From Candidatus Omnitrophota bacterium (lineage in GTDB: Bacteria > Omnitrophota > Omnitrophia > Omnitrophales > Aquincolibacteriaceae), in assembly GCA_035352955.1 (NCBI GenBank), contig DAOPYQ010000010.1, forward strand, positions 3,145 to 67,144: a DNA stretch of 64,000 bases. The letters run 5' to 3'. How positions within the stretch are numbered: the first letter of the stretch is position 1; the number at the start of each line of letters is the position of its first letter. The notes below the pieces were generated by a model, which had not been told where the DNA came from, ran no database searches, and worked only from the letters and a program-made list of their open reading frames with translations. This document shows, in pieces, positions 12,497 to 57,976 of the stretch. The position numbers and the translations under genes were made by a program.

Positions 12497-12511
12497 AAAA
12501 CGAGGTCGTTT

Positions 12512-13447: not shown

Positions 13448-13451
13448 GGGT

Positions 13452-14105
13452 ATGATGTCCTGGATCGATGTGAGTTGCATCCTGGCCGTGTTCCTGGCGC
13501 TCTCTCTTCTGGCAACTCATCGTATTGTGGGAATGATCAAGATCTTTGCATTGCAATCTTTCTTCCTGAGTCTTGTGCCGTTATTTATGAGTGCGGGTGC
13601 CATTTCGGGTCGCACTCTCACGCTTTCTCTCGTGACGATGGCGTTCAAAGCTGTGTTGGCACCCTCCATTTTATTCTGGACGATCCGGCACATCTCCATG
13701 CGTTCCGAGGTCAAACCTATTCTCGGGTTCGGAACCTCGATCCTCTGTGGGTCGGTATTGATCGCCGTTGCTTTCTGGATCTCTTTGTCTTTGAGATTGC
13801 CGGGAAAGTTGGTGCCAAGTTTGATTCTGCCATGTTCGCTGGCGACGATGCTTTTGGGTTTTATGACCATGGTGACCCGTACCCGCGCCATTACCCAAGT
13901 GCTGGGATATATGGTGATCGAGAACGGGATCTTTCTTTTTGCTCTATCACTACTGGATGCAATGCCGGTGTTTATTGAAATGGGCATCTTGCTGGATATT
14001 TTTGTCGCGGTTTTTGTCATGGCCATCGTGCTGAATCACATTAATGAAGAATTCGAACGGACCCGGGGATCTTCGAGTCGGCCTAAATGGGGGGAAAGTA
14101 ATTGA
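13452..14105 (+). CDS. HyfE-like small membrane subunit (NuoK-related).
   Basis: Hydrophobic protein of 217 aa, placed between the NuoH-like and NuoN-like genes as in the hyf operon. Confidence 0.55.
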   Translation: MMSWIDVSCILAVFLALSLLATHRIVGMIKIFALQSFFLSLVPLFMSAGAISGRTLTLSLVTMAFKAVLAPSILFWTIRHISMRSEVKPILGFGTSILCGSVLIAVAFWISLSLRLPGKLVPSLILPCSLATMLLGFMTMVTRTRAITQVLGYMVIENGIFLFALSLLDAMPVFIEMGILLDIFVAVFVMAIVLNHINEEFERTRGSSSRPKWGESN

Positions 14106-15514: not shown

Positions 15515-15556
15515 AGAGGCCCCGGCCGGGCGTTCAGCTGGAACGAATGAGGATCT

Positions 15557-17068: not shown

Positions 17069-17099
17069 GGTCGAATGATCCTATGAGTAAGGCGCTACT

Positions 17100-17777
17100 A
17101 TGTTGAAAATCCTGATGACGCGTTTCAAACAAGGCTGCCGCACCTTGCGTTTTCCAAGGGGCAAGCCGCCGGTCCTGCCAGCACGCTATCGGGGGCGGCC
17201 TATTGTCGCACGCAAGGAAGACAGTGTGGACTTGGGAAAAATAGCCTTTATTCCTGATAGCGGTATTCGACATTCCAATGATTTCCGGATGGGGGCATCC
17301 CGGCGCGAAGATCTTATGCTCAAGGGAGATGCGGAGGCCTTGGCGTTTACTTTAAATAAAAGGATTACGAAGATGTTTGGCCGATCCCTCAAGCTGCGGC
17401 AGGTGTCGGCAGGCGGGTGCAATGCCTGCGAGGCGGACATTAACGTTCTGAACACGCCTGTTTTTGATCTCAGCCGTTTCGGTATCCAATTTGTGGCGTC
17501 ACCGCGTCATGCCGACGGAATTGTTGTTACGGGGCCCATCACTCGCAACATGAAGGAAGCGCTTCTAAAAACCTACGAAGCCATACCGGATCCGAAGATC
17601 GTTGTTGCGATTGGAGCCTGCGCGATATCCGGAGGCATTTTTTCTAAAAGTGCCGAAGCCTCCAAAGGGTTGGATGCCCTAATCCCCGTGGACCTCTACA
17701 TCCCCGGTTGCCCCCCGCATCCTTTGACGATTCTTGACGGATTTCTAAGATTGATAGGGAGGCTGAAGAATGGGTGA
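17100..17777 (+). CDS. NuoB/HycG-like small subunit that retains the four Cys of the N2-type [4Fe-4S] cluster.
   Basis: GGCNACEAD ... GACAISGG ... IPGCPPHP give the CxxC...C...CPP pattern of group-4 small subunits. Confidence 0.85.
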   Translation: MLKILMTRFKQGCRTLRFPRGKPPVLPARYRGRPIVARKEDSVDLGKIAFIPDSGIRHSNDFRMGASRREDLMLKGDAEALAFTLNKRITKMFGRSLKLRQVSAGGCNACEADINVLNTPVFDLSRFGIQFVASPRHADGIVVTGPITRNMKEALLKTYEAIPDPKIVVAIGACAISGGIFSKSAEASKGLDALIPVDLYIPGCPPHPLTILDGFLRLIGRLKNG

Positions 17778-28212: not shown

Positions 28213-28276
28213 AAGAGCGTGAAACGGGTGCGGTGACCTGAGTTTTAGTCACGGCATCATGTCGGAGATTTAAACC

Positions 28277-31072: not shown

Positions 31073-31073
31073 C

Positions 31074-32198: not shown

Positions 32199-32313
32199 TG
32201 CTCGCAACGCGTAAAGCTCAACGCACCATGTAAAAATAACTAGCGATTCGTTGCGCGTTGTGCGTGGCGCGCCGAACTGTTATTAATGTGGAAATGTTTA
32301 AAGGAGAATCGAT

Positions 32314-34151: not shown

Positions 34152-37100
34152 ATGAACAAACAATCCCGACCCTCGTGGATGTGTAGGGGAATTTCTTTTT
34201 TTGTGGCCGTCGTATTCTTGACGACCACGATCCTGTGGGATCCGTCCGCTGTGCTCGCGGCAGTAGGGGGAATGGCGCTGCGGGAGCAGGAACAATTTCG
34301 AAAAGATCTGCAAAGTTACCTCTATACGTTGCCGTCTGAGATCGGCACTTTACATGAAATAGTGGATGGCGGAGGGCGGAGGGCGGATGGAGCAAGCAGT
34401 GTTTCGCCAACCTCCAACCTCCAACCTCCATTCGAATTTGTTATTCATATCCAAGACGCTCACGCCAATCCCGAGGCTCAGCGGAATATCTATCGAACGC
34501 TGAAATTTCTTGCCGAAAAATATCCCGGTCTTTCCGTCGCTATCGAAGGCGCGGAGGGACCGCTTTACCCTGAGTATCTGGATCTTTTCCGGGAATTTCC
34601 GGCGGCGAATCAGGCCGTGATCGAAGACCTCCTTCAAAAAGGGGAATTGACCGGCGCGGAGCTTTTTGTATGGGACAATTACAGAGCAACGCGCAACGCG
34701 CAAGGCGCGACGGGAAAGACGAATGCGTTGAGCGTTGAGCGTGGTGCGTTGATCGCACCGAAGGTTCAGGGTGTTGAAAACACCGAACTCTACGCCTCCA
34801 ACCTCAGGGCCTACCGCGATCTGCTTTTTAAACGCGGCGATATTCAAAAACTCCTGATCCCCATTCGTGAGAGACTCGAAAAGGAAAGCTCGCGTGCGCT
34901 TAACCCCGGGCTTCGCGGGTTTCTGAAAGAGCGCGACCGCCGCAAAGAAGGCCGCTATGACGTGTCCGGTACGGTTTCGGACGCCAATCTCCAGGCCTAT
35001 GTTCGTACGCTTCGCAAGGAAATCTCAAAAACCCTTGCGATCGATCTGAATGATGCGATCGAGCAGCTGCGTTTCCCGAACCTGGTCCGTGTGGTTCTTC
35101 TTGAGAAGAACGGACAGGGATTCGACCGCGCGCGTGCCGCGGACGAATGGAAAAAACTGATCGAAGAGATCCGTCCGGCCGCTAAAACCGTCGCCGAGAA
35201 GCAGCTGGTCGAGGCTTTGTCGGTTTATGGAGCGGAAAAGGTGGGGCTGGAAAAAAACAGCGCAACGGAAAACTCTTCCGCGAAGGTTGGCCGTGGCATG
35301 TTGGGCGCGCCGGAAGCGCTTTATCCCCGCAAGCTCCTTGAACGCTTGTCTGTTTTCGCCCGGGGACACAAGATCGACCTGGCCGACCGCAAGGCGTTCC
35401 TCGAGAGCCTGAAGTTTTTGATCTTCCAATCCGAGATCGATGTGACGGGTCTTATGAGTGAAATGGATTCCCTGGAGTCGCAGCTCATCGCAAAGCTTTC
35501 GCGAACGGATGCGGAAAAAGAGTTCGTCCGGCAGTTAGAGAATTCCGGGCTTCTCGTTAAACTTCTTTCACTGGAACTTTCGCGTGCCGAGTACCGGAAG
35601 GCTCTTGAAGTCCGCGGAGATCTTGCGGTGTTGGTCAAAGGCAACAAGAATCTCCTGGCCGCGCTCGAAAAGGCCTTTTCCTTTTATGAAGGCACGCTCA
35701 AGCGTGACGGGGCCTTGGCGGAGAATACTCTTGCCCTTTCAAAACAGGATGGCGGAAGGCGGATGGCCGATGGAGCAAGCGGATTTTCGTCACCCTTCAT
35801 GCTCCATCCCTCATCCCGATTGGTGGTGCTGATCACCGGCGGCTTTCACTCCGAAGGCGTCCGCGAGGCCCTGGTCGAGCAAGGCGCCGGTTATGCGAGC
35901 CTGACACCGCGGATCTCGAAGACCGATCATGGCGAAATGTACCAGAGGGTCATGGCGGACGATAACGCGGACCTGAGCGCCTATTTCAAAGTGAAGAACC
36001 CGTTCCTCACGAAACAGGAAGCCCTTCTTTTCAAGGAAACCCTCGAAATTGCGGCTCCGGTCCTTTCTGGAACCTATCAGATCACAGGTGCCGACAAGGC
36101 TCGCCGGGTCCAGAACGCTTTTGCGGACAGTCCCGTTCTTTCCCGGGCGACCGCCGCGGAGAATTTGCAGGATCCTGCGGAGCTTCGTTTTTCTCCGAGA
36201 TCCGCCGGAGCCATGCTGCCCCAAAACGCCGCGATCCCGTCCGTTCCTGTGACCGCGGGCCAGGAATTTGCCGCCCATGTCGCGCGTGCCGGGTCCGTGG
36301 TTGTGTCGACTGTTCCCGCCGATGTTTCCTTTACCGGTCCTTCAGTGGTCACGGTTTCCGGGGCGCGTCAACTGTCCGGGACGTTCCCCGGATCGTCGAC
36401 GGCTACTACCCCAGTCGATTTCCGCGCGGAGAAACGGGAGAGTCCCCAGACCTCTTCGGTCGCTGAAGGCGTTGAATTTTCGGAGCTTCTTGCAGGGAAA
36501 GTGCTGTCCGAGGGGACGAAGAATCGTTGGCGGAGTTTGTTGGCATCGGATCCTGTTTTCCAGGAGTTTATCCGGCGGTACAGGGGGAGCCTTGAAATTT
36601 TGGTCCGATCGGGGCGCGGCGAGCAGGCGTTTGCCCGGGAGTTGCTCGAGAAGTTCCCGAAGACCGATTGGGGGGCGTCGGTTGCGGAAGGCATTGAGCT
36701 ATCAGCGTTGCTTGCGGGTGAGGCATTCTCCCCGGAGGCTAAAGATCGATGGAGAGCTTTGCTTGGATCGGATCCTGCATTCAAACAATTCATTTTAAAG
36801 TACCGGGATCGTCTTGAATTATTCGCCGGATCCCAAAGCCGTGGCGACCGTGAGTTTGCACGGGAGGTGCTGGGAAGGGTTTCCCGCGCTGAATTGCGTG
36901 CCATCGAGGAAACGAACGCAAAACTCGAAGCTTCGGATCGCGCGGAACGGCGGGGCGTTTCGTACGAAGCGGTATTCGGTGTAATGAACGCGGGGTTCCT
37001 CGACCGGGTGCGTTCCGGAAAAACCGTTTCGTCTGATGAACATATCTTGATGGATCTCCGTTCCAAAGCTTTAAGGGAACTCGGCGCCGCTTTTGACGAG

Positions 37101-40100
37101 GATAGCGCGGATGAGGCCGTCCGGAGGATCAGGGAAGAAGTGATCCCTTCGTTCCTTGTCGCCGCGGATGCCGGACAGCGCGAACTCCTGCGGGACCTGT
37201 TGCTGAAACAGGCGCGTCAATACCACGAGCTTGTGCGTGGTTTCGGGACGGTCGCCTTTGATAAAGACCGGGATACCCGGCAGACGCTTGGGGCCAAGGA
37301 AGACGTTCATGAGGATGTTCTCTACGCGAGCTTTCAGGCCATGGATATGCTGACCGTTTTGGGCGATGAGAAAGCTTTAACGGAACTCATCAATCTTTCC
37401 CGCGAAGGTCTCCAGGCCCACTCTCAAAGCCGCGGGCTTCAAAAACTTATCGACGGTGTGGACAAACTTGAAAAGGAACAACGTCAGGATGACGCTTGGA
37501 AAGCCCTCGTGGAACAGTCGAGCGTTTACGAAGCGGTCCGGCGCTGGACCGTCCAGCAATGCATGCTTTTGCAGAGCGTGAGCCGTATTGCCCGGCAACT
37601 ACCGCAGAGCGGTGCGCGAGACGCCGCGGTCCGGCTATTGGCGGATATTTTGCTGGATCATGACGCAACGGCGGAGGGATATTACTGGCTTCGCCAGCAG
37701 GCGGCTTACCGGCTCAGGGATTTCGACTCGGATGTCGCCGTGCAGGCGCTTGACCGGGAAGCTTCCAATAAAACGCGTCCGCCTGCGACGACGATCTTTA
37801 TCACACCCAATCTGGACGCCGCAAACGATGACACGATGAGTGTTCAGCTTCAGGCCGGGATGAGCCGGATGCATATTCACAGGACTCGCGCTTTTGTGTC
37901 GCTTCGCGATCACTCGGATGACTTCTTGAGTTCACCGGAGTTCGAATCTTCGCAGAACAGGTTCGCGCGGCTCGTCGGTATCCAGGACGCTCTGATCGAT
38001 CCGGTGATCAGCGAAGCGATCCGCATTAAAACGCTGGAGAGAATCGGAAAGGCCCAAGGCGATGCTTTCGCGCTGGCGGGGAATATCCTTCTCGACGCGC
38101 TGGAGGAAATGATGGCACAAAAGCCCGGCGAGATCTTTTCTTCGAAAGGACGTCAAGGCTTGTTGACCCCGGGTGTTAAAAAAGCCGCTCTTAAAGCTTT
38201 CATGAGAATCGCCGGAGCGGTCGGCAGCCGATTGGAAAATAATTCCAAGCTTTACGCCGGATTTCGATCGGCGATCGGAAGGGCGGCTGCGAACGGTAGC
38301 GGCATTGCCGAAGCTCTTCATCTGACGCATGTCGCTTTGGCGAATCTAGACCGGATCGCCCAACTTGCCAGTTTTGAAGAAGGGGCGACCCGTCTGGACC
38401 TTTCACGGAACATCATTATCGAATCGGGCGGCGGTGCAGCCGTGGCGATGGCGGGCGTGGTCCACCGGATGACGACTGACCCTGCGCTTGCGGTGATCAG
38501 CGGAACGGATAACGGAGGCGGAACGCTGCTCGTGCGGGGACGTAATGCCGCTCAATTCGGGGTGCCAACCACGGCGATGGGAGACACGACCCGGTTTGCG
38601 TGTGAAGCGGCCGTGATGGAAAGCGCTCCTGCGGCTTTGATTATCCGCGCGCTGATGTCCTACCGGTGCAGCAAAGGCGCAAAAAGTTTTGTGGATGAAC
38701 TGGGCCAGATCAAAGACGATCTTTTCAAAAAAGCGCGTCAAGCCAACGGGGAAGAGGCCTTCAAAAAGGTTTTTGACCGGGTGCTGGAGATCGCCAAGCG
38801 TGTGGATGCCACGGGACAGGCGGTTGAATTCAACAGTGTCCGGAACCTTGTGCATGACGGTCTTCAGCTCATGACAGAGGGGCAAGGCGAAGAATCGATG
38901 AACCTGGATGCCGTCTATGCCGGGTTCGGCTTGTTCCGGGACCTGGTCGGATCAAAGGGGTTTGCGGTGGTCGATACTCCTTATGGTAATGAAATGGTCG
39001 TCACGACGAATGACGGGCAGGAAAAAATAGGGCAGGATTTTTTCTCCCACACGCCTTCCGGCACCCGTTTCGGCCGCGAACGCCGCATCAGCCGGATGAA
39101 AGATGTCAGCAATTATTATCCCGATATTCCGCTGCACAGCCGCGTCAGTCCTACGATCAAAAATGCGGATCTCATTCTCTCCGGGCTTTCGAGCTGGGGG
39201 ACAAGCCTCGGGATCCTTTTCAAGAATCCCGGCATTGTCAGCGCGATGGAGGCCAATCATAAGGCGACAAAGATCCTTCTGGCGAATCCCGTCCGGGACG
39301 ATGAAACGCGCGGCATGATCTGGCGGGAAGCTGTCGATGATTTTATTCATCATATGGCCGGCGTCCCCGTGGAATCTTTGTGGAACCGGATCTTGACGAC
39401 CGCGAACACGGATCTGGATCTTCCGATCGATACGGCGATGCCTCAAATGGGAACGAAACGGGATGCCCATGACGGAAAAATGGGAGGGTATACGGGCGCC
39501 AACACGCCGACCAACGCGGATATCGAGGCATTGCAAAAACGCGGTATCCAGGTGAACGTTTCGCGCAACTGGACCGAAGTGAAAATGACGCCGCGCCGGA
39601 CCAATCCGGATCTTTTTAACGCGTCGATCCTTGCGGTCTCTGAAGAACTGGCGCAGGCCCTTTGGGAAATCATGAAGACAACCACGCAGAAAAAACTGAC
39701 GCCGCTTCCGATCTTCACGCTTATTGAGCGTCACGAAGAGCTCTCGGAGAAGCTGCAGCAGGCGGGTTTGACCCTCGAAATGCTCGGGCTTTCGGATGTT
39801 CACAAGCTTATTTTTCATCCGGGTCTTGTCAAAGAATTTACGGCTTGGCTGAATGAGGGAACGGTTCCGGCCTGGATCGCGGAAAAAGGACCCGAAGAAG
39901 GCTGGGTCGAATATACGCTTCGCCGAGCGATCGAAGAAACCACCGGGACGCGCATGGATCCCGGGGCCATTCGTCTGGACCGACCGCTCACGATACTGCA
40001 AAAGGGCGGCCGGACGGTTATGGTGGAGTTCCTTTCGAAAGAACGGACCGATCAGGTTTTTCATGCTAGTCGCGTTCCCATCGCAAGCGATCTTAATAAA

Positions 40101-43100
40101 CGCCGGGAGGAAGCGACGCACCGTCTTGGCAAAGTGGACTTCACCGACTATGTGACGAAAAAAACCGTCACGATCCTTTTTCCGAACGAGCTCTTGACCG
40201 TCGGACGGAATCCCAAGGATCGTTTGGATCGTCTCAAGGCGGTTCTTCAATTCCAGATCGAAAAAATGGACTGGATCCTTCAAGATAAGGACGCGGTCCG
40301 TTTGTCCGAAAGCAACCCGGAGGCTTTTGTGGGGGGGCTCGCCGCCGCCGGTTTTCGGATCGCGGAAAGTCTGACGGATGAGATCCGGATCCTAAATCTT
40401 GAGCAGGCAATCGCTCCAACAGGCGTCGGAGAAGCCCAGGATATCTTTCGAGGTCATCTCCTCAGCGTGGTGGAGCAGGGCTTGGGGCAAGCGGTTGCTG
40501 TCCGGAAAGAAGCGGCTTATCGTGAACATCTCGAGTTCCTCCTGCATCTTGAGTCTTTGGCGGAAAAGGATAAAGCCGCGGATGGCAAAGATGAAACGGT
40601 TGCGGGACGAAATGCCTTTTTGAAGTTGATCGGAGAGCTTTCGGTCGCGATCCCTTACCAGCGGTTCTTGAGGATCGCTCAAGCTCAGGGGAAAGTCCCT
40701 GTGACCATGACGGACATGGATGGAACGATGTCGGCCGCGGGAACGGAGCTGACCACGCCGATGGCGCATGCTCACCACGATGCGGCCACGAGCGAAACGA
40801 GCGCGATCCACTATATTACCGGGCAGGATTTCCGGGGTCCAAAAAAACAGATCATTGAACCGATGAAGCAGATCGAAAGGATCCTGTCATGGCTTAGCAT
40901 TCGGACGGGGGTCGCTCTTTCCCGCGAGGGAATGCACCAGATCTTTCAGAATATGTCCTTTGGAGCCTGCGCCGGAAGCGCCCTTTTTATCTATAAGAAG
41001 GGGGTTGGGTATATCAAGGTCAACCAGAGGAGCATTCCCAAGAAGCAGGTCGATCTGATCGTTCTAGCGTCCCGGCTCAGCATGCCGAAAGTTCCCTACG
41101 AGATCGAGGGATATCAGATCGAGCTCCGGGAACCGCAAATGGTACAGCGGCCGGATGGTTCCTGGAAAGCTCTTGGGTTCGCTTCCGTTGCCATCCTTCC
41201 GTCCGGGCGGTTTGACTCAAAACGGAATTGGGATTTGCCTCCCGAAGCCAAACTCCGCAAAAAGCAGGCCGCAATCATGGAAGCTTTGTTATCGGATCCG
41301 GGAGAGATGCTCAGGATCGTCAAGCAACTTCTTGGTAAGGGAAAGAACGCGGACTGGGAGTTTACCGTCCGCGGAAAAGATGGTGCCGAGAGGCGCATTA
41401 AGGTTCTGCCCGAGCAAAAAGAAGCGGTCCTGGAACTTTTTAAAAAGAACAAGGATAAGTGGGAAAATCCCGGACAGATCGCGCCTATTATCATTTCGGC
41501 CCAGGCCGGCGGCAGCACCACGACCGACGTTTCTGGAAGGAGCAAGGCCGAGGGCGTGGATTTTGCTCTGAGCGATCCTGATTTCAACGAAATACCGGCC
41601 ATTCAGGGCAGGGATGTTACGGTGGCGGCGATCGGGGACGAAATGCAGCAGTTTGAGTCGGAAGATCCGGACCGTCCGGGTGAAAAGATCCAGAGCCGGG
41701 GGAATGATTTTGCGATGGCGGAAGATCCCGTTGCTGAGATAGGACTTCTTGTTCATACGGGTTCGTGGGGAGGAACGTTGCCGAACACCGCGACGGCTTA
41801 TGATCCCCGCGGCATCGAGCCGTTTATCACGGTCGATCTTGTGACCTATTCCGGCCGGGCGGTCGCGCGCGGCGAGAACGTGAAGCGTGTCCTTGAGATG
41901 GAAAAAGAAGAGCCGGACAGATTTGGCGATATCTCGAAGTATCTGGTCACAAGTCTGGAAGATCTGAACGAAAGTCAGGCGTCCGAACTTTTGATCGCTC
42001 GCGGGGCCGGACGTTTGGAGATCCGCGCGAAAACGGGTGTTTCTTCTCTCGAAGCTTCGGATCGCGCGGAACGGCGTACGGCTGAAGATCTTGCCAGGGC
42101 CGTGATTGATCTGAAGATGACAGACCCCGCGGATGTTGAGGTTCTGCGTTACATCCAGGGCCGCCTTTTGGAAAAAGCCGAGAAGGGGCTCAAGGGGATC
42201 TCGGGCCTTTTGAGCCCGCAACAGAGTTTTAACGCTTCTGCCGGGATCGTCGCGGACATGATCGGCGCCGGGACCGAAGCAAGCGACAGGCCTCTCTTTG
42301 AGCGAATGGCGGCCTTTATTTTGAGGCCGACTCTCGACGGGAAATTTTCCCCAAGAGATGATCGTTTGTTCGAGGCGGTGAGGACCCTTTTCTCTTTCAC
42401 CGAGGGGGTTGCTCCCTCGAAACTGCGCTTTTCCGGGGCGGTTCGCGCTATCGGCGATCTTCTTCAGCCGGGGGTTTCCCTGACCGGAGGAAAACTCCGG
42501 GTTCATGAGAATATCCGGCAGCAGCAGGCGGAACATTTTCTCCGGTTGGTAAAGACCCTCGAAGGTCGGAACGAGAGGGCCGACCCGTCGATCGAGCAGA
42601 TGGTCATCAATTATTTGCTCTATACCGGAATGTCGCGCCTTTTCCGGGAACATCTTGTTCTGCACACGAGGGAATACTCCGGCGCTGCGGTCCAAAAGGC
42701 CTTTCTGATCCTTGATGCCGTGGATAAGGCCACCGGTCGTCGCGGCGAATTACGCGCCGATGCCGCCCGCGGTTTCGAACTCCGATACGATAAAGCGTCC
42801 GGGAACTACATTCTTGTTAAAAACAAAAGAGAGATCGAGCGAATTTCGTTCTACCGCGGCCCCATTGCCGTCGCGGGAGATCTCGTCCGGGCCTTGCAAT
42901 CCGAGGGGATCTCTGTTGTTCGCGATCCCGGCGATGTGAGCCGGATCATTTTCGGGGCCGGGCCGGAGGCTGTTGGCGAGTCGGTCTCGGTGTCGAATTT
43001 TCAAAAACTTCAGGAATGGGTTGCGTGTTCCCCGGCGCTTGCCGCAGGCGCGGCGGCCGCAAAAGAACCGCAGCATCCGATCAACTTTTTTCGCGACGGC

Positions 43101-46100
43101 CTTTTTGTACAGCATATTTTTCCGGAAGAAGCGGCGAAAAGCGGCCGGGGTGTCCGCGCCGAGAGGCGGGATGCTGTCGTCGAACCAGGACCTGCCGCGG
43201 AGGTCGAGGGACAGGAAGAGATCGTGATGAAGGCTAAAGCCCTGCCGATCAGCTCCGTCAGCGGGACCGTTCTTTTTATGCCCCGGACGAAGCTTTCCCT
43301 GTATTGGTACGTTGATGCCGAGAATCTGCCCGCGGCACTTGCGACCACCCTCCGGTTCACTGAAGAAATGTCCGAGGATCTCGGGGTCATGTTTCCCAAG
43401 TCGACCGGAGCCTACCGGCCGTTCGTCGATCTTGAATATTACAAACAGAAGGCTTCGACTCTGTTGAAAGAAGTTCTTGAACTTCCACTTCCGGACCAGG
43501 GACAGACGGGCAAGGGTTTGCAAAAAGTCAGGGAGCTTTTCAAATACCGTCACTTTTTACCGTTTGTCCGCATCGGGGTTTCCGAACGAGAAGTGTTGAT
43601 CGCAAAGTTCGAAAAGCTCGTCGCTGAAGAAGCGGACCGGCGGGATTCCGAGATCGTGAATTCCTTGATCCAGTTGCAGGGCCTGTCGTATGAGCATTGG
43701 CTCGAACTGAAACTTGTGCTTGCGACGGTTCAGCGAGAGGCGCTGCAAGGACAGGCTCTTTTGGAAAATATGCCTACGTTGAACACCGCTACGGCGGATC
43801 AATGGGGTTCTCCGGAGATGGTCCGCGAACTTGGGATACTGTTGTCGAATCTCGGTAAGTCCCATCCGGCACGGAGTCATCCCGCCCTGGTTCGTTTCCT
43901 CGAAGATTATCATGATGCCGATATTGCGTCATCCGGGGCGGAAGAAGGACGCGATCTCGAAGAACTGATCGTAGCGTTGAAAAAGAACGGGAAACCAGAA
44001 GCGACGCTCCTTCACCCGCTTGCCGCGATCTCGAATTTTTTGGTCGACGAAGAACCTCAACCGGAGCCGGGAGAGCTCGGAATGTGGAGGAACGGTTTCT
44101 TTATGGATCACGTGCGTGATCGTATCGCGTTGCTGAGTCACCGGGCCCGTGTTCAGCAGCAGAAAGAGCAGGGGGAAAACGGGGACGAACTGCTTGAAAA
44201 AGAATGGGCGCTTGCCCTTCGGGCGATCCAGGGTATTGAACGGCAGTTTATGGCGGAGGCACAATCCCTCGAGAGCCGGTTGCGCGGCTACCATGAGAGG
44301 GAGAAGAAAGTGGCGGAATATAAAGCGCGGCGTGCCAATCCTGTGGGGCTTAACGCTGAAGACCTTCGCAGTTTGGACCGTAAGATCAAGGACGGGGAGC
44401 AATTTCTTGAGGAATTTAAAGACCTCAGCAGTTCTTTGGCGAGGTCTCAGAGCAACATGGTGAATCTAAAAAGTAATTTTTTAAACGATCTCAATGATCC
44501 CGAGTTCAAGATACGGGCTTTTGCCGCCGTGAAGGTTTCCGGAGAAAGCTTGATCGAATACCTTTACCGGGAAAAGAGCGGGGATATGCGGATGGTTACC
44601 GGGCTCGCTCTGCGAACGTTGCTCGAAGAACTTCCGGAAGCCTCACGGGTGATGAAACGGGGGATGGCCGATCTCGTTAGTAATTATCACGTGGGCTTGC
44701 GCCGGATCCTGGAAACTTTTGATGACGAAGAGAAACCGGCGGCGGAAAAATCTCAAGGTTCGGAACGCGTGTGGGGGGACGGAAAAGGTCCGGTCGTGGT
44801 ACTGATCCGGGGATTTGTCGTCGATTCCCAGGTGGAAAATATCCGGAAGATCCTCGGGAAGCGTTTGGTCGGGATCTTTGCGACGCAAGGGGACAAGGGA
44901 ACGCATTGGGTCCAGCTTTTGCTTAGCCGGTCGAACCGTCCCGGGTTGGCGTTCCTGAGCGAGGGGAAATATAAGGATCTTCTCGACAATATCCGGGAAG
45001 GTGACACCGTGGCTCTCAAACTCCAGGAGGGATCGGAAGAGGCCGAGGTGATCCACCATCCGTCCGCCAAGACGCTTGCGGAAATTCACGCGGCTCAGCG
45101 GGAAGAAGCCTTATTGCGAGGCGGCGAAAAGATCCTCGAGGCCGCCCGCACGAGGGTGCCCGTTCGGGTGACGCTGGACACCCAGAACCCTGATGCGTTG
45201 AAGGCGGAAGGCTCCGCGGGGGCGGGGCTCGTGCGAGGGGACGTCATGAACCATGCCATGCGAAGGCGTTACTCCGCGGTTTTGGAGGCGATCGGAAGGA
45301 ACAAGTTTGATTTTGAGGGGTGGTTCCGTTTGTGGGGCACGGTCGATTTCAGGGGGATGAAGTCCGGGGCGGATCTGGACCATTTTCAGCAGGACCTGAC
45401 GAGGGTCCTGGACGTGGACGCCCTGATGGAGGTCCAGGGTTTTCTCGCGGAACTTGTGGCTGAGGATCTGGCGTTGCTCCGGAACGCCAGGGGGCGCGTG
45501 CCTTTCCGGACCATCGACCTTGTCAATGACGACAGCAAGGGACAGGAAATGGTCAACCTGATCCTCGAGATGCAGCGTCGTTATCCTCATTCGAATCTGG
45601 TCAGGGACCTCAACAAAGGTTTTTTTAGTTTCCATTTTTATGAGAACAGCCAAGCCGGCCTGTTTGTTTTGATCAAACAGCTGACGGCCGAGTTCATTGC
45701 GGCGCATCAGCTCGCGGAAGAGGGTGGGAGCCCGCAACTGGCCCCGCTTTTTCCGATGGTCGAATCCGCCGCGCAGATTGATTTTATCCAACGTGAGGTT
45801 CTTCCCGTCGCGACCCGCCTCGCGGTATGGAACATCGCTTCCCAGAAAATGAAAGAGCAGAACCTGTCGAACGGCGAAAGGTTCGAGCTTCTCCGCAAGA
45901 TCGAAGAATCGATGCGGGAGCAGGTGCTCGGCAAAACCCGGTTTGGGGTGATGGTGGAAACAAGGAGCCTTCTCAGGGATCCGGAAGAACGCAAAAAGAT
46001 CATCGCGCATCCGCTCGTCAGTTTCTTTAATTTTGGCACTAATGATCTGACACAGCAGGCGGCGTCGGATGCGATCGGGCATAACGTTCGGAGGGACGAC

Positions 46101-49100
46101 CCGGAAAGCTCCTACTTTTTTTCCCCGATGTACGGCGAGCTGGTCAATGAGGAAGACGCGCTTCTGACGGATCTGGCGGCGTATAACCGGGACAGGCCGG
46201 AATCTCAAAATAAAGACGCGGACATTTGCGGGCAGAAGGCGAGTGATGATAATTTTCTTAATCCGGTGACCCAATGGGACCGTCAGGGGATCCCGATTTC
46301 CGTGAGCGTTCCCCCGGCCGATATCCCGCATGTGAAGCACGTTCTTCTCCGTCTTCAACAGGTTCCGGCGGAGCGCCTCGATCAGACCACCAAACTTCCG
46401 CTTTCAGCCAGGGATATTGAACTGCTGGATCTCCGGGTGTCCGAGCTGAACGCGTCTCTTTTGGGGGAATCCCGGAAATTCCTGAAAACGGCCTACGAAT
46501 GGCACGACCGGTATCGTGAGGCGGGGTTCTACAGGAATTTTTACCGTTCGGACCTGAACCCTGTGGAGGGGCTCGGGAGTGTTCGGGAATTCTATTATCT
46601 GAGAAAGCTTATCCGGTCGAGGATGAGTGATTCGAGGAAGGATGATCCCGCAGAGCCGGTTACGAGCAAAACCGTGGCGGCGATGGTCAGGGTTCTTTCC
46701 AAAAACGGATTTTTGCTGCCTTACGAACAGGAAGGATTGATCCGGGGGTTCGTGTTTCTGGACGCTGTCCGGCGGGCGTATGGCAGGCTGGGGTTGACGG
46801 GATCTATCGATCCTTCCAGGCTTGAAGAATTGATCGCTGTTTTTTCCGAAGAAGAACCTGCGCCCTGGTTGCCGCCGCTTCCTCCGGATGCCACTGCGGA
46901 GGACCGGGCCAAAAGGGCGAACGCGTTTTACAAGCAGTATTTTTCCCATGCAAATCTTGTCTTTAATACGATGATACGGTACGTCCACGAGGGTTTCATG
47001 GAATTATTTCCGCCCGCGTCGGAAAATGTGCAGGTGATCGGAACGTTGAAGAGCGCGAACGGGCGCGAGATCCTGCTTCGCAGAGCCGATCGTTCCGGAG
47101 TCATGTTTGAGCGGGACGAAGGGTTCGTTTATAAAACGGCGGCGGAACTTTATGTCGAGCCTCAGGATATGGCCGCGCTGGATCAACTGCTCAAAGAGGA
47201 CCCCTCGGCGGTCATCGAACTTTTCAAAATGGTCGTGGGGCCGCGCGGAAGGCTGCGGATCGGCTATGGGATCCAGCGGGCGATCGTCAAAGCGGTTGCG
47301 ACCATGCCCGAGCGCCAGGATCTTTCTCCGGAGATGAGGTCCAAACTTGACCGGGCCTTGAAGGAATTTTTCACGATGCCCGAGGATATTTCGTACGCGT
47401 TTTGGCGCATGCACCGGTTCGGTTTTTTGAGAAAGTGTTGTCCGGGGTACGATGCCATGCGGGCGGATTTCCTGACGGGGGAAAACCGTTTTTCAGTTCA
47501 TATGGAGACGTTCCAGGCGATCGAATTCATGGAAGGACTGCCCAGACGCGGCGAGTTCGCCCTCGCGCATGCCAGGGAGGTTTCATTGAAGATCCGAAAA
47601 GACCAGGGCGAACACGCTTCCGGAATCCTCCGCCTGGCCGTATTTTTGGACGGGATCATGCGGAGTGTTTATAAGACCGCGCCGATGTCTCGCGATGAAG
47701 TCGCCGCGTTCGTGAATAAGGAGCTTGAATCCCGGGGATGGTCTGGGGAGGACCGCGCGAAGATCTCCTGGCTTATTTACGAGAAAAGGATCCTTGCGGA
47801 CCTCGATCCGATGTCGGACCAGGAAGTGGCCGAGACGCTTGCGAAAGTTCTCTCCGGATGGAACCAGAAATCCGGGATGATCGATCTTTTGTACATGATG
47901 CTTTTGGCGACGCGGATCGGTTCTATGAGGCCCAGCAAAATATTGCTGGCATTGCGCCAGGGCCCGGAATCGGGGCTTGCGGGCTGGGAGGAATTCCACC
48001 GGGTCGGGACCGCAGTCCTTGATAGCGGAACCCAAAAAAGTCCGTTGATTGACCTTTACCGTAGAGCGGGCGAAGTCCGCCAGTTCATGCTTGCGGAGGG
48101 GGCGGTCGGGGAGCTTGCGGGGGAACTTGCCGCGAGCATCAGGGATCCCAAGGTTTTTCAGCGGTTGTTCGATGAAGCGAACGTTGTGAATGTTCCTTTG
48201 TCGGCGGCAGAAAAGGGTCAGATCCTGGCTTTTCTGAGCGACCCGGATTTCTTTAAGGTTCTTTTCCAGAAATATGTTGAACGCTTCGGATGGCGTTATA
48301 TTCGTGCGCTCGACCTGGAGGAACACACGCGGGACCGCAAAACGATCCTGAAACAGCTTCTTTTTCTTGCGGCGCTGGAATTTTTGGCCGGGAAGGGTAA
48401 GTCGGATGCGCTGACGATCGCTGAATTTCCTCTTCCTTTGAGCGAGAACCGGGCGCCTTACGAGATCCTGATCGGGGTTCCTGTGGCGGATTCCGAGGTT
48501 CTGTCCGCCGTTCACCTTACCTCCAGGGCGCTTTACCAACACGGGTTTGTGATCGAAGATATGTCGGCATCGGTCCTTGGCACAGGGTCGGGGGTCGTGC
48601 TCCGGTTCCTCGGGGTTTTTCCCGCGAAAATTACGGATTCCGCCTCCGAGTTGCAAAAAGTCCGTACCGATCTACAGAAGATCTTTGAACGGCAAAAATG
48701 GTCGGTTGTCCGTTTCCTGAGTGGTTCTGACGAAAAACGGATCGTCGGTCGCCGGTATCATGCCATGGATAATTTGTTCCGCGGTCCCCTCCGCGTCTGG
48801 CGACGGGGTGCCGTGGGAGGCGCTGCTTCGCGGGTTAAATTGACACCGCACCGGTTTCGCAACAACGTGCTGGTCCTCAATGCCACGACGGTGGACTATC
48901 CGGGGCTGATCGCTTTTGTAAGTGGCATGCTCGCAAGAAATTATAAGCTGAACGGGCGCGATTTCAGCATGACGGACCTGAGCGGCGGGGTGACGCGTAT
49001 CATGGCCTACATTGAACGAGAAACAACCTCCGAAGAGCCGGGTTTTCAGCAGCGGATCGAAAAAGAGATGAAGGAACGGCTCGAGTATCCGGCGGCCGAG

Positions 49101-52100
49101 ATGGATGGATCGAAAATAAAGAATCTGAGTGAGGCCGACCGAGCTGAGAAACGGGGAGAGAAAAAGGAAGCGGTTGTTCGCGGAACAACGAAGGCCGGCG
49201 CCTCGGAAAGAAAGAAAGCTTCCGCGGAGAAAATCCAGAAGCCCACGGTCGATATGAATTGGAAAAAAATAAAAACGGATCAGGAGAGAACGCTTAAAAA
49301 CAGCGGCGTGAAATTCTATCCCGATGTCAGGGACGGCTCCGGTGCGGGATTTGAAGTCGAAATGGGTTCGGCGCGGTGGCAATACTGGCTCGAGACCGGG
49401 AAAGATCCGGTGTCCGAAAAGTCGTTCGTTCGGGTGATCAACTGGTTTGTGTCGCACGGGCGAAGGAGGGTCTTTCCCGAGCAATCAAGTTCGGATCGTT
49501 CCCTCAGCTTTCGTCCTCTCGAGAGTGCGGAGGGTCCGGTTCGTGCGATTGTGTCGGTCGGAATAAATGAAAAAGAAGGTATTTCCGTGACAATAGCGGA
49601 TGTAAGTCCCGCGGGATTTACGTCTCCGGTGGTCCGTTGGGCCGACAAGCCCGGAACTTCATCGGAAGAGATGCTTTTTGAGACTTCCAAGGGTTCTCCG
49701 ACATCATCTAAGGGTTCGGAAGGTTCTTCCGGGCTTCCCCAGCAATTGGGAGCTCCTGACGCGTTTCTTCCCGCGCACGCGGCTTCGCCATCGAGCGCAG
49801 AGCCGAGTTCGGGGGAGCTTTTGGCCAAAGATGATTCCAGCCTCGGAATGGCCGTCAGGGTTCCGAAAGACAGGCCTTTTTTAGTTGATGTCGGTCATCG
49901 AATCGTGACCCTTAATCCCGCGTTTGACAAGACTCGCTACCGGTTCCTGTCCGTTCCGGCCACGCGGTCTGAGGACGGAACGGTGATGACCGTTTACGAC
50001 CGGCTTGTGTGGGCCATGACGCAGGTTCTGGAAAACTGGGCTAAACTTCCCGAGGAAGTGAAATCCGGCGAGGAAAAACTGGTCTCCAGGCCGTCGGAGG
50101 CGGGCGTGATGACGCAGGCAAAAGGCGTGAAAATGACGGAGGACCCGGAATTGTTTGTGGCACGGAAAACAGCCGAACTTGGGAAGCTCTGGAAGATCCT
50201 CGGGGATTCCGGGCCTGATTTTGCGTGGGTGTTGGATGAAGATGCGCTGAAGGATTTTATGGCTGAAGCGGCTTATCGTAATCACCGGGGAGTTCGGGAA
50301 TTTATAAAAAAATATTTCGAGATGGTCCTTTTTTACGCGGAGGCCGGTCCGGAATTGCGCGGTGAGATGATGGCCGGTTTACGGGACAACCTGCCGGAAA
50401 AATTCCGGGGGAGGGTGTTTTCGTATACCGCGTTCGTAAAGGCCGCGCTTTTAAAAAACAGGCCCTTTTCCAAGACGGTCTTTCTCCGTGAACGTCCACC
50501 TTCTATTGTTGCATGGAAGGGAACCAAGGACGCGTCGTGGCAAAATTCAATGGCTTTCGAAAATTCGGTTTACCGTTTTGAACAAGGAGAAGATTGGTAC
50601 ATCGCGGCGTTTGCGGAATGGGCAGGGCGCACGTTCCTTTTCTACAAAACAACGCGTCTCCGTGACTGGCAGCATGCGGATTTTGTCCGTGAACTCGGAA
50701 GCCGTTACGAGCCCATGGCGGATGTCCCGGGGGGGATGACCCTTTTGTCGCCGCAACTTTCGGCCAAGATCGAAGCGCTTGTCGCCGGCACGCCCGGCGT
50801 GGTGAAAACGGTCGACAAGAGCGTTTTCGGGAATGTTGCCCGGGAAAAAGGGCTTGTTGGTTTTACGGATAATTCGGTGCTTGAAAAAGTCCTTGGCTCA
50901 AAAAAGCTGGAGGCCCTGAAACACGAGCTTGAAAACCTTTCGCTTGCGGACCGTCCGTATTTTGTCATGGTCTGGAAGCGGCCGCTTTTGGGAGCGTGGA
51001 TCGAAAAGCGGTTTGGCCGGTGGCTCGACAAGTGGCTGGGGAACAGTCTGTTGATTTGGTATAAAAAGTCCGCGAGCGCCCAGATCCGTCAGACGGTTGA
51101 ACGGATGGTTGCGATGCTGAAAGAGCGGGACCGTGTCTCAAAAGAGCGCGGGGTAAGCGCTGTCGCGTCCGGTCCCGATCTTGGGCAAACGGCTCCGAAG
51201 GACCGCGCAGAAAAGCGTGTAGGGGCGGTCACGAGGCCTCTTGAAATGTCCGCCGCAGAGGCGGCCCGGGTCCGCAAGATCTTCATTCTCGGCCACCAAG
51301 GGCAGGGTAACACGCAGCTGAGCTATGACGTTAAACACTTTTCGGTGCTGGTCCCGCTTCTTTTGACGCGGTTTCCGAACGCGCAGGTGGATATGGCGGT
51401 GGATTATGCCAACCTTTTTGCGGCGCGGCGTTTTGCCGACCGGGTCTCGATCGTGAGGGACCCCGCTTATTCCGAAAGGACAGAGCCACAGGAACCGGTC
51501 CGGGTGATCTATGTGCCTACGGGGGCGATCGCGGATGCCGTGGATCGCGGGAATTCCGCGGCCCTTGTCGATTGGCTCGCGGCCGGGGGTTATGATTACG
51601 TTCTGGATTTTGCGCAGTGCGGGGTGGGGCTTGAAGAATCCCTTTTTGAACTTTCTCAAAGACCGGCGCCCGCGGACGGTAGCGCCCGGCCGAAGCTTCC
51701 GGTGGCATTTCTCAATATGAGCCCGCTTCCCGGGACGAATCCTTCGATGACGGATGTGCCGGATCCCGTTTTTAGGGTCGATGTGAACCTTTCCGAGGGG
51801 GAGCATCTGTCCCGGGTCCGGGGGACTGAGGACCTTAACCGGACAACCCCGTTGGGCCGTGAGGCGCGGTATTGGGAGATGATCTTCCGGGTCTACCGGG
51901 AGATGGGGCTGTTGAGAGAAAGAATGGATCTTCAGCTGCTCGATCTCGGGAACTGGGGGCTGGATGATCTGGAGAAGGATTGGGTCAAGCCATCGCTGGA
52001 AGGAATGCTTCGTAGGAGTGGTCTTTCGGAATCGGAAGCCCGGGACGTTCTCGCCTCGGGGCGGAAATTCATTTATGTGAACGTTTTTTCGCACAGTTAT

Positions 52101-54013: not shown

Positions 54014-54091
54014 GTCCCCATCGTCTAGGTCGGCCTAGGACACTAGATTTTCATTCTAGTAACAGGGGTTCGAATCCCCTTGGGGACGCCA
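54014..54091 (+). tRNA. tRNA-Glu (anticodon UUC).
   Basis: Cloverleaf folds by hand: acceptor GTCCCCA/TGGGGAC, anticodon stem CTAGA/TCTAG with loop TTTTCAT (anticodon TTC, A37), T-arm GGGGTTCGAATCCCC, discriminator G, encoded CCA. Near-identical to canonical bacterial tRNA-Glu. Confidence 0.9.
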
Positions 54092-57969: not shown

Positions 57970-57976
57970 GGATTTT

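Follow-up and report, generated by a model that had tools for sequence, protein, structure and literature searches.

We put a probability of roughly 0.6 on the reading that a PEP-utilizing module of the Enzyme I (EI) type forms the N-terminal half of a ~1,450-aa core in giant proteins of Candidatus Omnitrophota, with a GlnD-like sensor behind it. The protein studied here is encoded by a giant ORF in the window, i.e., the whole 64-kb stretch of DNA that was analyzed (Table 1). The same protein is deposited at NCBI (HNX69265.1), where it is labeled 'response regulator [Candidatus Omnitrophota bacterium]'; its gene is also present on independent NCBI and JGI contigs, and the cluster of this protein has three contigs on record (NCBI, JGI, Logan, ENA). 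Proteins of 2–8 thousand residues here join a GlnD-derived sensor to an EI-type module that keeps the full catalytic set; they come from a phylum that is uncultured and probably dependent on hosts. Should the module be active, a phosphorelay would be tied to the availability of PEP and to an amino-acid signal by an architecture that was not found in the literature searched.

Table 1. Positions of the features discussed in the text (nucleotide numbering of the window; residue numbering of the giant protein)
Feature	Residues (aa)	Nucleotides	Strand	Basis
HTH + EIIA(Ntr)-like protein, 227 aa, stand-alone		9962..10645	+	Pfam, PDB matches
Giant ORF, 6,597 aa		34152..53945	+	ORF list, translation
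RAERR pentapeptide, N-terminal delimiter of core segment	3002-3006	43155..43169	+	Motif search
Mostly uncharacterized region between RAERR motif and swivel	3007-3540	43170..44771	+	Pfam, NCBIfam: nothing
Swivel phosphohistidine domain	3541-3638	44772..45065	+	Profile alignment to EI, AF2 model
Linker helix, swivel to barrel	3639-3663	45066..45140	+	AF2 helix 99-123; aligns to EI linker region
PEP-binding TIM barrel	3664-4100	45141..46451	+	PF02896 at aa 3913-4068; AF2 and fold matches
GlnD-like block without nucleotidyltransferase head	4129-4995	46536..49136	+	A2 profile search, hhalign, AF2
GlnD_UR_UTase-type helical domain		about 46536-47021	+	Alignment to GlnD
Degenerate HD domain, His and HD dyad replaced		about 47481-47786	+	Alignment to GlnD
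ACT-like domain 1	4755-4846	48414..48689	+	AF2 fold; aligned to first GlnD ACT region
ACT-like domain 2	4894-4993	48831..49130	+	AF2 beta-alpha-beta-beta-alpha-beta at model residues 795-893
RAEKR pentapeptide, C-terminal delimiter, directly after ACT-like domain 2	4997-5001	49140..49154	+	Motif search
Response-regulator receiver domain	6141-6229	52572..52838	+	PF00072 51.8 bits; PDB receiver-domain structures matched

Most of the giant protein is without domains recognizable by Pfam or NCBIfam. Outside the core, the receiver domain and a stretch with a weak CofD likeness are the only parts that are not dark to NCBIfam and the PDB. In the receiver sequence, the acidic pocket is of the usual kind, and the aspartate of TDLKMP, the Ser, and the Lys are visible. 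Only one stretch of the giant protein is hydrophobic, an N-terminal helix (aa 10–28) that is preceded by positive charges and resembles a signal or an anchor. If this helix were a signal and the bulk of the protein exported, a PEP-dependent relay of the cytoplasmic type would make little sense. As a separate observation, a high-GC segment that ends at a tRNA-Glu gene was examined for the att repeat of an island; the 3′ end of the tRNA is not repeated anywhere in the 64-kb window.

Searches with the single module sequence were nearly blind, with phmmer against the PDB returning EI alone at E 0.72 and a word-indexed protein search returning nothing, so an exhaustive search of representative proteins was needed to obtain homologues. 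This HMMER search yielded 36 relatives, mostly of 2–8 kaa, although some, among them P0021, P0025, and P0026, have ~900 aa; all relatives with a named source are from Candidatus Omnitrophota. The core (aa 3541–4950) is conserved as a single block in about 18 of the 36, which are giant proteins. A scan of genome contigs with the single protein gave one locus only.

The EI-like module (aa 3541–4100, nt 44772–46451) consists of a swivel phosphohistidine domain and a complete PEP-binding TIM barrel; its boundaries were also delimited as aa 3541–4148. An earlier note on this DNA had located it at 44780–46100, where it does lie, but that interval stops short of the barrel's end and leaves Cys4026 (codon nt 46227–46229) outside. 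The peptides quoted in the earlier note for the swivel and the barrel all occur in the translation of the giant ORF, namely LVGIFATQGDKGTHWVQLLLSRSNRPGLAF (aa 3572–3601, nt 44865–44954), PLFPMVESAAQ (aa 3865–3875), GVMVETRS (aa 3932–3939), and SFFNFGTNDLTQ (aa 3957–3968). In the AF2 model, the swivel is an alpha/beta domain. Pfam PF00391 has no match in the giant protein, and this domain was recognized only through the profile alignment and the structure model. Its predicted phospho-acceptor, His3585 (codon 44904–44906), lies in the family motif (T/S)HWV, is invariant in the family alignment (A1), and falls in the same column as the His of EI GGRTSH (His189/191; S. carnosus, E. coli EI).

The barrel carries the counterparts of the E. 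coli EI residues R296 (R3695), R332 (R3786), D335 (D3789), K340 (K3796), E431 (E3936), N454/D455 (N3964/D3965), R465 (R3981), and C502 (C4026). Across the 17 sequences of A1, which share 21–40% identity, columns H45, R155, R246, D249, K256, E396, N424, D425, and R441 are invariant, and column C486 is conserved in at least 90%. The expectation that the His of GTHW would align with EI His189 and that the PEP-binding Arg and Cys residues would be conserved was thus borne out. Retention of the catalytic positions at such low identity is the signature of selection on catalysis. The module looks intact and is predicted from these residues to be catalytically active. It is highly improbable that it is a catalytically dead structural remnant in a scaffold protein: one might think so from its extreme divergence from curated EI models, from the degenerate domains next to it (the HD motif is lost), and from the lack of recognizable domains in most of the giant protein, but every known EI catalytic position has been kept, invariant or nearly so.

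When the 17-sequence family profile was compared with the PDB, EI scored highest (E 5e-29, 104.6 bits), ahead of PEP synthase (PEPS; 2.7e-19, 72.5 bits) and PPDK (about 3e-11, 46 bits). Over the swivel part, the profile matches EI only; PPDK and PEPS match the barrel alone. A word-indexed search with the same profile gave EI/PtsP-type architectures as best matches, with many PPDKs also matched. Pfam PEP-utilizers_C (PF02896) recognizes the barrel at 33 bits (E 4.6e-8) against a gathering score of 22.8. Matches of this kind lie well above chance. The NCBIfam EI model TIGR01417 reaches 15.5 bits (E 0.004) versus a cut-off of 341.7, which marks the module as very divergent from bona fide EI, and the barrel has helical insertions relative to EI. 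The AF2 model of the module (pLDDT 87.4, pTM 0.89) was matched by Foldseek to PPDK and to full-length EI structures over ~560–580 columns covering both domains, with PPDK (E 4e-12) ranked slightly above EI, so that the fold alone does not discriminate between them.

This ranking, together with the PPDKs among the profile matches, could suggest a metabolic enzyme of the PPDK/PEP-synthase type that interconverts pyruvate and PEP; the module would then be its PEP/pyruvate half, with a nucleotide-binding domain that is too divergent to be seen or supplied in trans. In the passages retrieved from two papers on Omnitrophota giant proteins, PPDK-type and receiver domains are described as frequent, and the PEP-utilizing domains are interpreted as PPDK (West-Roberts et al. 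2023; 10.64898/2026.06.07.730766). The profile scores and the restriction of PPDK and PEPS to the barrel argue against this interpretation, as do the HPr domains found behind the core in relatives (below) and the lack of any PPDK_N/ATP-grasp signal in the giant protein or its 36 relatives by Pfam, custom HMM, and hhalign. Specifically, PPDK_N (PF01326) has no Pfam match at E≤1 over the whole giant protein and none in any of the 36 relatives, a custom HMM gave a best E of 0.46 in the giant protein, and hhalign of aa 3340–3540 with the PPDK N-terminus gave E 0.57. An upstream ATP-grasp domain was rejected on the lack of signal from hhalign and the custom HMM, in agreement with the earlier note, which had seen none. 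We regard the metabolic interpretation as very unlikely. Judged by its sequence, the module is of the Enzyme I type and not PPDK- or PEPS-like, keeping all known EI catalytic positions, and the EI/PtsP assignment of the earlier note stands.

The region upstream of the swivel (aa 3007–3540) is partly conserved in three relatives (P0002, P0003, and P0007). The HPr-binding alpha subdomain (PEP-utilisers_N, PF05524), which in EI is a defining part inserted in the N-terminal domain, was sought in the giant protein with Pfam and a custom HMM, neither of which gave a match. A joint hhalign alignment of the module plus the upstream sequence reaches EI residue 41; it was dropped as evidence because the upstream region alone (aa 3340–3540) is not significant against the EI N-terminus (E 0.19, probability 0.3%). 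As far as these profile methods reach, an HPr-binding alpha subdomain is not independently detectable in the giant protein.

The GlnD-type ACT domains noticed in the earlier note are real, and the likeness is wider than these domains: the entire block behind the module is collinear with GlnD residues 226–911. Searched against 5.8 billion sequences, the profile of the block (A2) had three GlnD proteins as its only database matches (E 3.6e-8 to 1.8e-5). Alignment by hhalign paired A2 columns 30–891 with GlnD 226–911 over 670 collinear columns (probability 95.7%, E 1e-8). The GlnD likeness came out solely through the profile search and hhalign; the block has no match in the PDB by sequence and essentially none in Pfam, where one of 11 members gave ACT at E 0.097. 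Foldseek with the AF2 model of the block (pLDDT 82.6) matched structures of a class II nucleotidyltransferase, the A-adding enzyme, and of IlvA regulatory domains. In this model, ACT-like domain 1 comprises strands 656–661, 668–677, 701–709, and 716–724 and helices 684–697 and 731–746. For ACT-like domain 2, the hhalign match extends across the second ACT region of GlnD (836–887) up to A2 column 891 (GlnD 911), and Foldseek retrieves threonine deaminase regulatory domains with probabilities of 0.92–0.98.

What the block lacks is the nucleotidyltransferase head (NTP_transf_2, GlnD 100–176), the GlnD alignment starting only at residue 226. The end of the EI-like barrel and the start of the GlnD-aligned block are separated by only ~30 aa, and the EI-like module, as placed by this alignment, sits exactly where GlnD has its head. 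The HD motif is lost as well: hhalign places 'VHMETF' (family consensus mQTL) opposite 'vdeHtl' of GlnD and 'FLDGIMR' opposite 'flHDigk', and A2 has no invariant His or Asp column. With the head missing and the HD metal-binding residues lost, neither GlnD activity is to be expected in the block.

Domains of the HPr type follow the core in the relatives. At least eight carry one to three HPr domains with a GIHARP His, located 60–400 aa past the second ACT domain. Both the GIHARP motif and a family-HMM match were found right after the core in P0003, P0005, P0006, P0008, P0009, P0010, P0012, and P0016; in P0007, the match is weak and covers part of the domain (29 residues, E 9.4e-6). The domain of P0005 is also recognized by Pfam PF00381 (26.1 bits, gathering score 23), that of P0009 (residues 2947–3037) has HPr as its best PDB matches, and a member of the P0008 cluster is labeled 'HPr family phosphocarrier protein' by NCBI. 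In many relatives, both HPr and receiver domains come after the core. The giant protein itself, including aa 5002–5684, and the whole 64-kb window contain no recognizable HPr or NPr, a regex search included, leaving the search for such genes that the earlier note had proposed empty at this locus. An HPr family HMM run on the six-frame translation of the window gave a best E of 2.2.

The missing HPr, the position of the module in the slot of the GlnD head, and the degenerate HD domain, which makes a removal activity unlikely, would also suit a module that replaced the uridylyltransferase head of GlnD and acts as a PEP-driven phosphotransferase on a PII-like or other protein or on a small molecule, with no HPr intermediate. 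We consider this unlikely: the same-core relatives with HPr directly downstream argue for the classical EI-to-HPr step, and a PII gene, sought in the 64-kb window, is not present there. No precedent is known for a PEP-dependent modification of PII, which also weighs against this idea.

In the preferred EI-to-HPr reading, PEP would be bound in the barrel by Arg3695, Arg3786, Lys3796, and Arg3981, with Mg2+ coordinated via Glu3936 and Asp3965 and with Cys4026 as the proton donor. The phosphoryl group of PEP would be transferred onto His3585 of the swivel domain, which would in turn pass it to an HPr-type carrier, probably the one encoded in cis in those relatives that have it. For the giant protein, the acceptor would have to be a free HPr/NPr or an HPr domain from a paralogous giant protein, acting in trans in either case, or else something of another kind. 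The ACT pair is most likely, by analogy with the GAF domain of PtsP, a small-molecule sensor (for an amino acid, possibly glutamine) that gates the EI-like activity, and the purpose of the relay may accordingly be regulatory rather than metabolic.

The earlier note had also tied the module to the stand-alone HTH-EIIA(Ntr)-like protein of the window. That protein is genuine, with PTS_EIIA_2 at 74 bits, HTH_17 at 26.9 bits (just below its gathering score of 27), and PtsN proteins as its best solved relatives. Its motif GIGNGIAIPH is identical to that of E. coli PtsN around His73, and the phosphorylatable His136 (codon 10367–10369) is conserved. The gene is the first of a hydrogenase/complex-I-like (Mbh/Nuo-like) operon (10646..17777). 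A nitrogen-PTS-like relay composed of the EI-like module, an unseen NPr, and this protein has some appeal, given that an EIIA(Ntr)-like protein with a conserved GIAIPH His needs an EI/HPr-type phosphodonor, that the module looks catalytically intact, that a GlnD-like block with ACT domains hints at the sensing of nitrogen or amino acids, and that the two genes share a contig, with 24 kb between them. Those 24 kb hold unrelated genes, however, no HPr/NPr lies within the window, and the relatives of the giant protein are all without an EIIA-like domain. Moreover, wherever sequence downstream of the HTH-EIIA gene is available, in 21 related metagenome loci and down to 66% identity, the gene lies directly 5′ of the Mbh/Nuo-like operon, which ties it to that operon and leaves a link to the giant gene unsupported. 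Such a three-part relay appears quite improbable, and the HTH-EIIA gene is probably not part of the system of the giant protein. Of the relay first envisaged, the PTS-like character gains independent support from the HPr domains in cis in relatives, but the tie to HTH-EIIA is not, its synteny pointing elsewhere.

A domain-delimiting motif, R(S/A)E(M/V/L)R, was noticed, and in the giant protein the pentapeptides RAERR and RAEKR bracket the core segment on its two sides; a search of the literature for the pentapeptide strings found nothing relevant. A tentative and rather doubtful extension is that the giant proteins are polyproteins cut at this motif, releasing a self-contained signaling cassette encoded in one frame. 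Its parts would be a PEP-driven EI-like enzyme that has taken over the catalytic slot of GlnD and is gated by the ACT sensors, one or more HPr carriers, and a receiver, with the HPr-less copy in the window served in trans by HPr units cut from a paralogue. If true, this would be a new way to build a PTS(Ntr)-like nutrient-sensing relay, and the motif would be the first concrete candidate for a cleavage site in giant proteins of Omnitrophota. The bracketing pentapeptide offers a testable answer to whether, and where, these proteins are cut into smaller pieces.

PTS Enzyme I has been described as a free protein of ~570 aa and in a few compact fusions, with PtsP as the only well-known sensor-fused form. 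The module described here shares with EI and PtsP the swivel His in the His189 column, the linker helix, and a TIM barrel with the same set of Arg/Asp/Lys/Glu/Asn-Asp/Arg/Cys residues, and it shares with PtsP the fusion to a putative small-molecule sensor. In contrast to both, it has no detectable HPr-binding alpha subdomain or GAF domain in its protein, has large helical insertions in the barrel, carries (T/S)HWV in place of GGxTSH, and lies ~3,500 residues into a protein of 6.6 kaa; its sensor, unlike that of PtsP, lies C-terminal and is GlnD-derived. With GlnD, the block has in common the helical domain (xxDPxxGxGs on GlnD EPNxKxGxGG), the HD fold, and two C-terminal ACT domains in the same order. 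It differs in having the EI-like module in the slot of the nucleotidyltransferase head and in its HD residues, the metal-binding His being replaced by E/Q and the HD dyad by DG or other residues. In the literature searched, an EI-type module fused to a GlnD-type sensor region was not found, nor was anything relevant on Omnitrophota with a PTS.

EI and HPr are joined in one polypeptide in the multiphosphoryl transfer proteins and other PTS fusion proteins (EI-HPr-EIIA, FPr, DTP). The relatives likewise combine EI-like and HPr domains in one chain, but they are without EIIA, place ~870 aa of GlnD-like sequence between the two, and house them in hosts of 2–8 kaa, and the giant protein itself has no HPr. 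Other Omnitrophota giant proteins ('Archaeovorins') are comparable as well: they belong to the same phylum and are similarly multi-enzyme, membrane-anchored (here by a putative anchor), and largely Pfam-dark, yet measure at least 30 kaa as opposed to 6.6 kaa here (West-Roberts et al. 2023; 10.64898/2026.06.07.730766). Term searches of these two papers for HPr, PTS, or a response regulator found none. If the module is active, the 'PPDK domains' earlier reported in such proteins could be reread as signaling modules.

The giant protein is encoded by a single ORF of 6,597 codons (34152..53945, + strand), within which the interval singled out by the earlier note (44780-46100) corresponds to approximately aa 3544-3983, and all of the peptides quoted there were found in the translation. 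A Pfam scan of the whole protein returned only four matches (CofD-like, DUF1421, PEP-utilizers_C, and receiver), with DUF1421 probably representing a chance match; swivel, ATP-grasp, HD, and ACT domains were not detected by Pfam. The CofD-like stretch was also matched by the NCBIfam model "GAK system CofD-like" (E 2e-4), the surrounding middle of the protein being otherwise dark. Single-sequence searches of PDB, NCBIfam, and a word-indexed protein database were practically blind to the relationships of the module. When 1.84 billion cluster representatives were searched exhaustively with HMMER, 36 relatives were retrieved (25 with E≤1e-10), nearly all of 2,000-7,800 aa, among them the giant protein itself with a later start codon (P0001). 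The identical protein HNX69265.1 carries the NCBI name "response regulator [Candidatus Omnitrophota bacterium]", named relatives, likewise from Omnitrophota, are called "putative PEP-binding protein", and the giant gene is also present on contigs of GCA_964411105.1 and JGI metagenome 3300009692. Comparison with the relatives delineated conserved blocks at aa 1-750, 3541-4950, 5685-6106, the receiver domain, and 6340-6597, separated by variable or unique stretches. Local phmmer placed the limits of the conserved module at aa 3541-4148; given the conserved block at aa 3541-4950, the module makes up the N-terminal ~600 aa of a unit of ~1,450 aa inherited together, referred to here as the core block.

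Positions of features in the giant protein and its gene
Feature	Window (nt)	Strand	Giant protein (aa)	Remark
DUF1421			1542-1571	Pfam, weak, sub-threshold, E 0.026
CofD/YvcK-like stretch	39090-39554		~1647-1801	Pfam CofD 26.6 bits, under gathering score 30
GTHW stretch			3572-3601	
His	44904-44906	+	H3585	EI His189 equivalent
Conserved EI catalytic positions			R3695, R3786, D3789, K3796, E3936, N3964, D3965, R3981	
PLFPMVESAAQ			3865-3875	
PEP-utilizers_C			3913-4068	Pfam 33 bits on shorter piece, gathering score 22.8; profile's C-terminal half only
GVMVETRS			3932-3939	
SFFNFGTNDLTQ			3957-3968	
Cys	46227-46229	+	C4026	EI C502 equivalent; past the earlier note's end coordinate
Response-regulator receiver domain			6141-6229	Pfam
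Pentapeptide copies 1-4	36423-36437, 36885-36899, 36939-36953, 42063-42077		758, 912, 930, 2638	
Pentapeptide copies 5-8	43155-43169, 49140-49154, 51204-51218, 53016-53030		3002, 4997, 5685, 6289	

An alignment of 17 module sequences (A1), 21-40% identical to the window sequence, contains the invariant columns H45, R155, R246, D249, K256, E396, N424, D425, and R441 and a near-invariant C486. Against all PDB sequences, the A1 profile ranked EI first (S. carnosus EI, E 5e-29, 104.6 bits; E. coli EI, 1e-25), PEP synthase second (2.7e-19), and PPDK third (about 3e-11), with the swivel part covered in the EI matches alone. When A1 was used on the word-indexed database, canonical EI and PtsP architectures ranked first, followed by hundreds of PPDKs. 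These rankings uphold the original placement of the module with EI/PtsP rather than PEP synthase/PPDK. The proposed catalytic His, in the (T/S)HWV motif of the family, aligns with the His of GGRTSH, which is His189 of E. coli EI, and the columns of the PEP-binding candidates R3695, R3786, and R3981 are invariant and that of C4026 near-invariant. Counted along the sequence, conserved columns fall on R296, E431, N454, D455, R465, and C502 of E. coli EI, with the equivalents of R332, D335, and K340 placed from the RTLDxxxDK stretch. Such invariance of catalytic residues makes it unlikely that the module is a dead remnant. AlphaFold2 with A1 as its alignment confidently predicted a complete barrel connected through a long linker helix to an alpha/beta swivel domain (pLDDT 87.4, pTM 0.89). 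In Foldseek comparisons spanning ~560-580 alignment columns, this model matched PPDK at E 4e-12 and full-length EI at 2e-10 to 4e-10. The predicted fold confirms a two-domain unit, yet does not separate EI from PPDK; at the sequence level, the profile tells the two apart.

The region upstream of the swivel domain also bears on whether the module could be a metabolic enzyme of the PPDK/PEP synthase type. In agreement with the earlier note, Pfam at E≤1 identified no ATP-grasp domain in the giant protein or the relatives scanned, an HMM of PPDK N-termini found nothing (best E 0.46), and hhalign of the 200 aa upstream of the module with the PPDK N-terminus gave E 0.57; the alignment to PPDK begins exactly at the swivel domain. 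A metabolic enzyme of this type is unlikely given this lack of ATP-grasp, the preference of the profile for EI, and the HPr domains of relatives described below. A joint alignment with EI reaches back to EI residue 41, the upstream piece alone attaining only E 0.19, and the presence of the EI-specific HPr-binding helical subdomain in the giant protein is not established. Several shorter relatives of 800-1,100 aa (P0021, P0025, P0026, P0028, P0030, P0032, and P0035) display the same divergent swivel (THWV) and PEP barrel, with an unassigned stretch of ~300-550 aa, reaching ~780 in P0032, N-terminal to the barrel; neither ATP-grasp nor PF05524 was found in them. They may represent stand-alone ancestors or cousins of the module in the giant proteins.

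A second alignment (A2), comprising aa 4100-4995 and ten relatives, yielded no PDB sequence match and practically no Pfam match. Searched against 5.8 billion sequences, its profile retrieved exactly three matches, all GlnD-type [protein-PII] uridylyltransferases (E 3.6e-8 to 1.8e-5). For one of these, in which Pfam maps the nucleotidyltransferase head to 100-176, GlnD_UR_UTase to 208-346, HD to 487-580, and ACT to 836-887, hhalign gave a probability of 95.7% (E 1e-8, 670 columns), placing A2 30-891 on GlnD 226-911. The alignment thus begins past the catalytic head, rendering the block a head-less GlnD, and ~30 residues lie between the end of the EI barrel and its start. The His of the GlnD HD domain stands opposite Glu (family consensus Gln), the HD dyad stands opposite DG, and A2 has zero invariant His or Asp columns; judged by these residues, activity of the HD domain is improbable. 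The AlphaFold2 model of the block (pLDDT 82.6) displays a C-terminal pair of beta-alpha-beta-beta-alpha-beta units, and Foldseek matched the block to a class II nucleotidyltransferase (A-adding enzyme, E 5e-4) and to threonine-deaminase regulatory (ACT-like) domains. The GlnD-type ACT domains proposed earlier were therefore borne out, with the likeness covering the whole GlnD body.

With three relatives scanned, Pfam identified a PTS-HPr domain directly behind the core block of P0005 (26.1 bits, gathering score 23). Motif and HMM searches located 1-3 HPr-like domains 60-400 aa past the core block in P0003, P0005, P0006, P0008, P0009, P0010, P0012, and P0016, most displaying the G(I/L)HxRP(A/S) phosphorylation motif, and a weak partial match in P0007 (E 9.4e-6, 29 residues). 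The domain of P0009 matches solved HPr structures with His15 aligned, and a member of the P0008 cluster is named "HPr family phosphocarrier protein" by NCBI. These domains independently support transfer from EI to HPr as a step in this family, and they argue against the PPDK reading of such domains in the Omnitrophota literature. In the window, an HMM of the relatives' HPr domains reached a best E of 2.2 on the six-frame translation, a regex search for the motif around the HPr His found none, and aa 5002-5684 of the giant protein, after the core block, are unique and matched nothing in the databases or in PDB. JGI contig Ga0172380_10000152 (L016), whose HTH-EIIA gene is 86% identical to that of the window, measures 147,658 bp, as does the NCBI contig with P0005, a relative that has HPr and whose module is only ~32% identical. 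Should these be the same contig, close relatives of this organism would carry paralogous rather than orthologous giant genes of this family, and HPr could come in trans. A possible but less likely reading of the HPr-less copy is a GlnD-style enzyme with its head exchanged for a PEP-driven phosphotransferase, acting straight on a PII-like target.

The HTH-EIIA(Ntr)-like ORF at 9962..10645 proved genuine (PTS_EIIA_2, 74 bits; best PDB matches PtsN), with GIGNGIAIPH conserved and His136 at nt 10367-10369. It adjoins a membrane-bound hydrogenase/complex-I-like operon (10646..17777); 24 metagenome loci hold related genes (66-89% identity), and the operon directly follows the EIIA gene in 21/21 of those with downstream sequence, at identities as low as 66%. 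HTH-EIIA is the first gene of this hydrogenase/Mrp/complex-I-like cluster, which encodes NuoL/M/H-like, 49-kDa/30-kDa fusion, and 20-kDa subunits, and SulP and/or ArsR genes lie upstream in most loci (L004-L027). It is unusual in itself for a PTS(Ntr)-type EIIA fused to a DNA-binding domain to precede an operon for an energy-converting hydrogenase. EIIA domains are missing from all relatives of the giant protein, and Pfam found no further PTS genes among the other window ORFs scanned. Given the synteny with the hydrogenase-like operon and the lack of EIIA in giant relatives, the link between HTH-EIIA and the giant protein was not supported, though it stays conceivable, since the HTH-EIIA protein must receive its phosphoryl group from some donor; the full N-PTS relay of the earlier note has low support.

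From the observed domain identities and residue conservation, we infer an activity, a transfer direction, and small-molecule sensing for the core block. PEP would bind in the barrel and phosphorylate His3585, and the swivel domain would hand the phosphoryl group on to a carrier of the HPr type, which relatives encode in cis; for the giant protein this carrier would act in trans or be missing. The GlnD-derived ACT pair may sense a small molecule and modulate the EI-like activity, much as the GAF domain of PtsP senses a small molecule and modulates activity. The giant protein has one hydrophobic segment only, a helix at its N-terminus that resembles a signal or anchor; were most of the protein exported, it would be difficult to account for a function that depends on PEP.

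Most giant relatives contain 3-18 copies of a pentapeptide, R(S/A)E(M/V/L)R, in the forms RSEMR, RSEVR, and RSELR (seven contain none and two a single copy), against 0.05-0.2 expected from shuffles; the giant protein possesses 8 copies of the variant RAE(K/R/L)R versus 0.14 expected, and the other window ORFs none. Copies are almost always located at boundaries of conserved blocks or domains, often ≤10 residues from an HPr domain, and bracket the HPr domains of P0006, P0008, and P0010. In the giant protein, one copy immediately follows ACT domain 2 and another immediately precedes block 5685-6106. Neither flanks nor codons are conserved, and no literature on the pentapeptide was found. It looks like a candidate domain delimiter or proteolytic processing site; in the latter case, giant proteins would be polyproteins.

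G+C amounts to 54-58% from ~25.5 kb to the end of the giant gene (window ~25500-54000) versus 42-51% in the flanks. A tRNA-Glu(TTC) gene (54014-54091), 69 bp past the stop codon, ends the high-GC segment; no repeat of its 3' end occurs within the window, and integration as an island is thus not demonstrated. HlyD, a fused double-ATPase/ABC-2 permease, an ABC-2 permease, and a TolC-like OEP are encoded upstream (27148-33717), OEP, HlyD, and an AcrB-type RND pump downstream (55769-61057), and a third RND set at 685-6610. None of these efflux-type sets, which flank the giant gene or lie farther upstream, includes the ABC transporter with a C39 peptidase that typically serves large proteins in type I secretion.

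The domains described here are individually known and in part caught by automated annotation. In the literature passages searched, PPDK-type and receiver domains are reported in Omnitrophota giant proteins (West-Roberts et al. 2023; 10.64898/2026.06.07.730766), with no mention of the module as EI instead of PPDK, of its fusion with a head-less GlnD body as one conserved core, or of HPr domains behind it.
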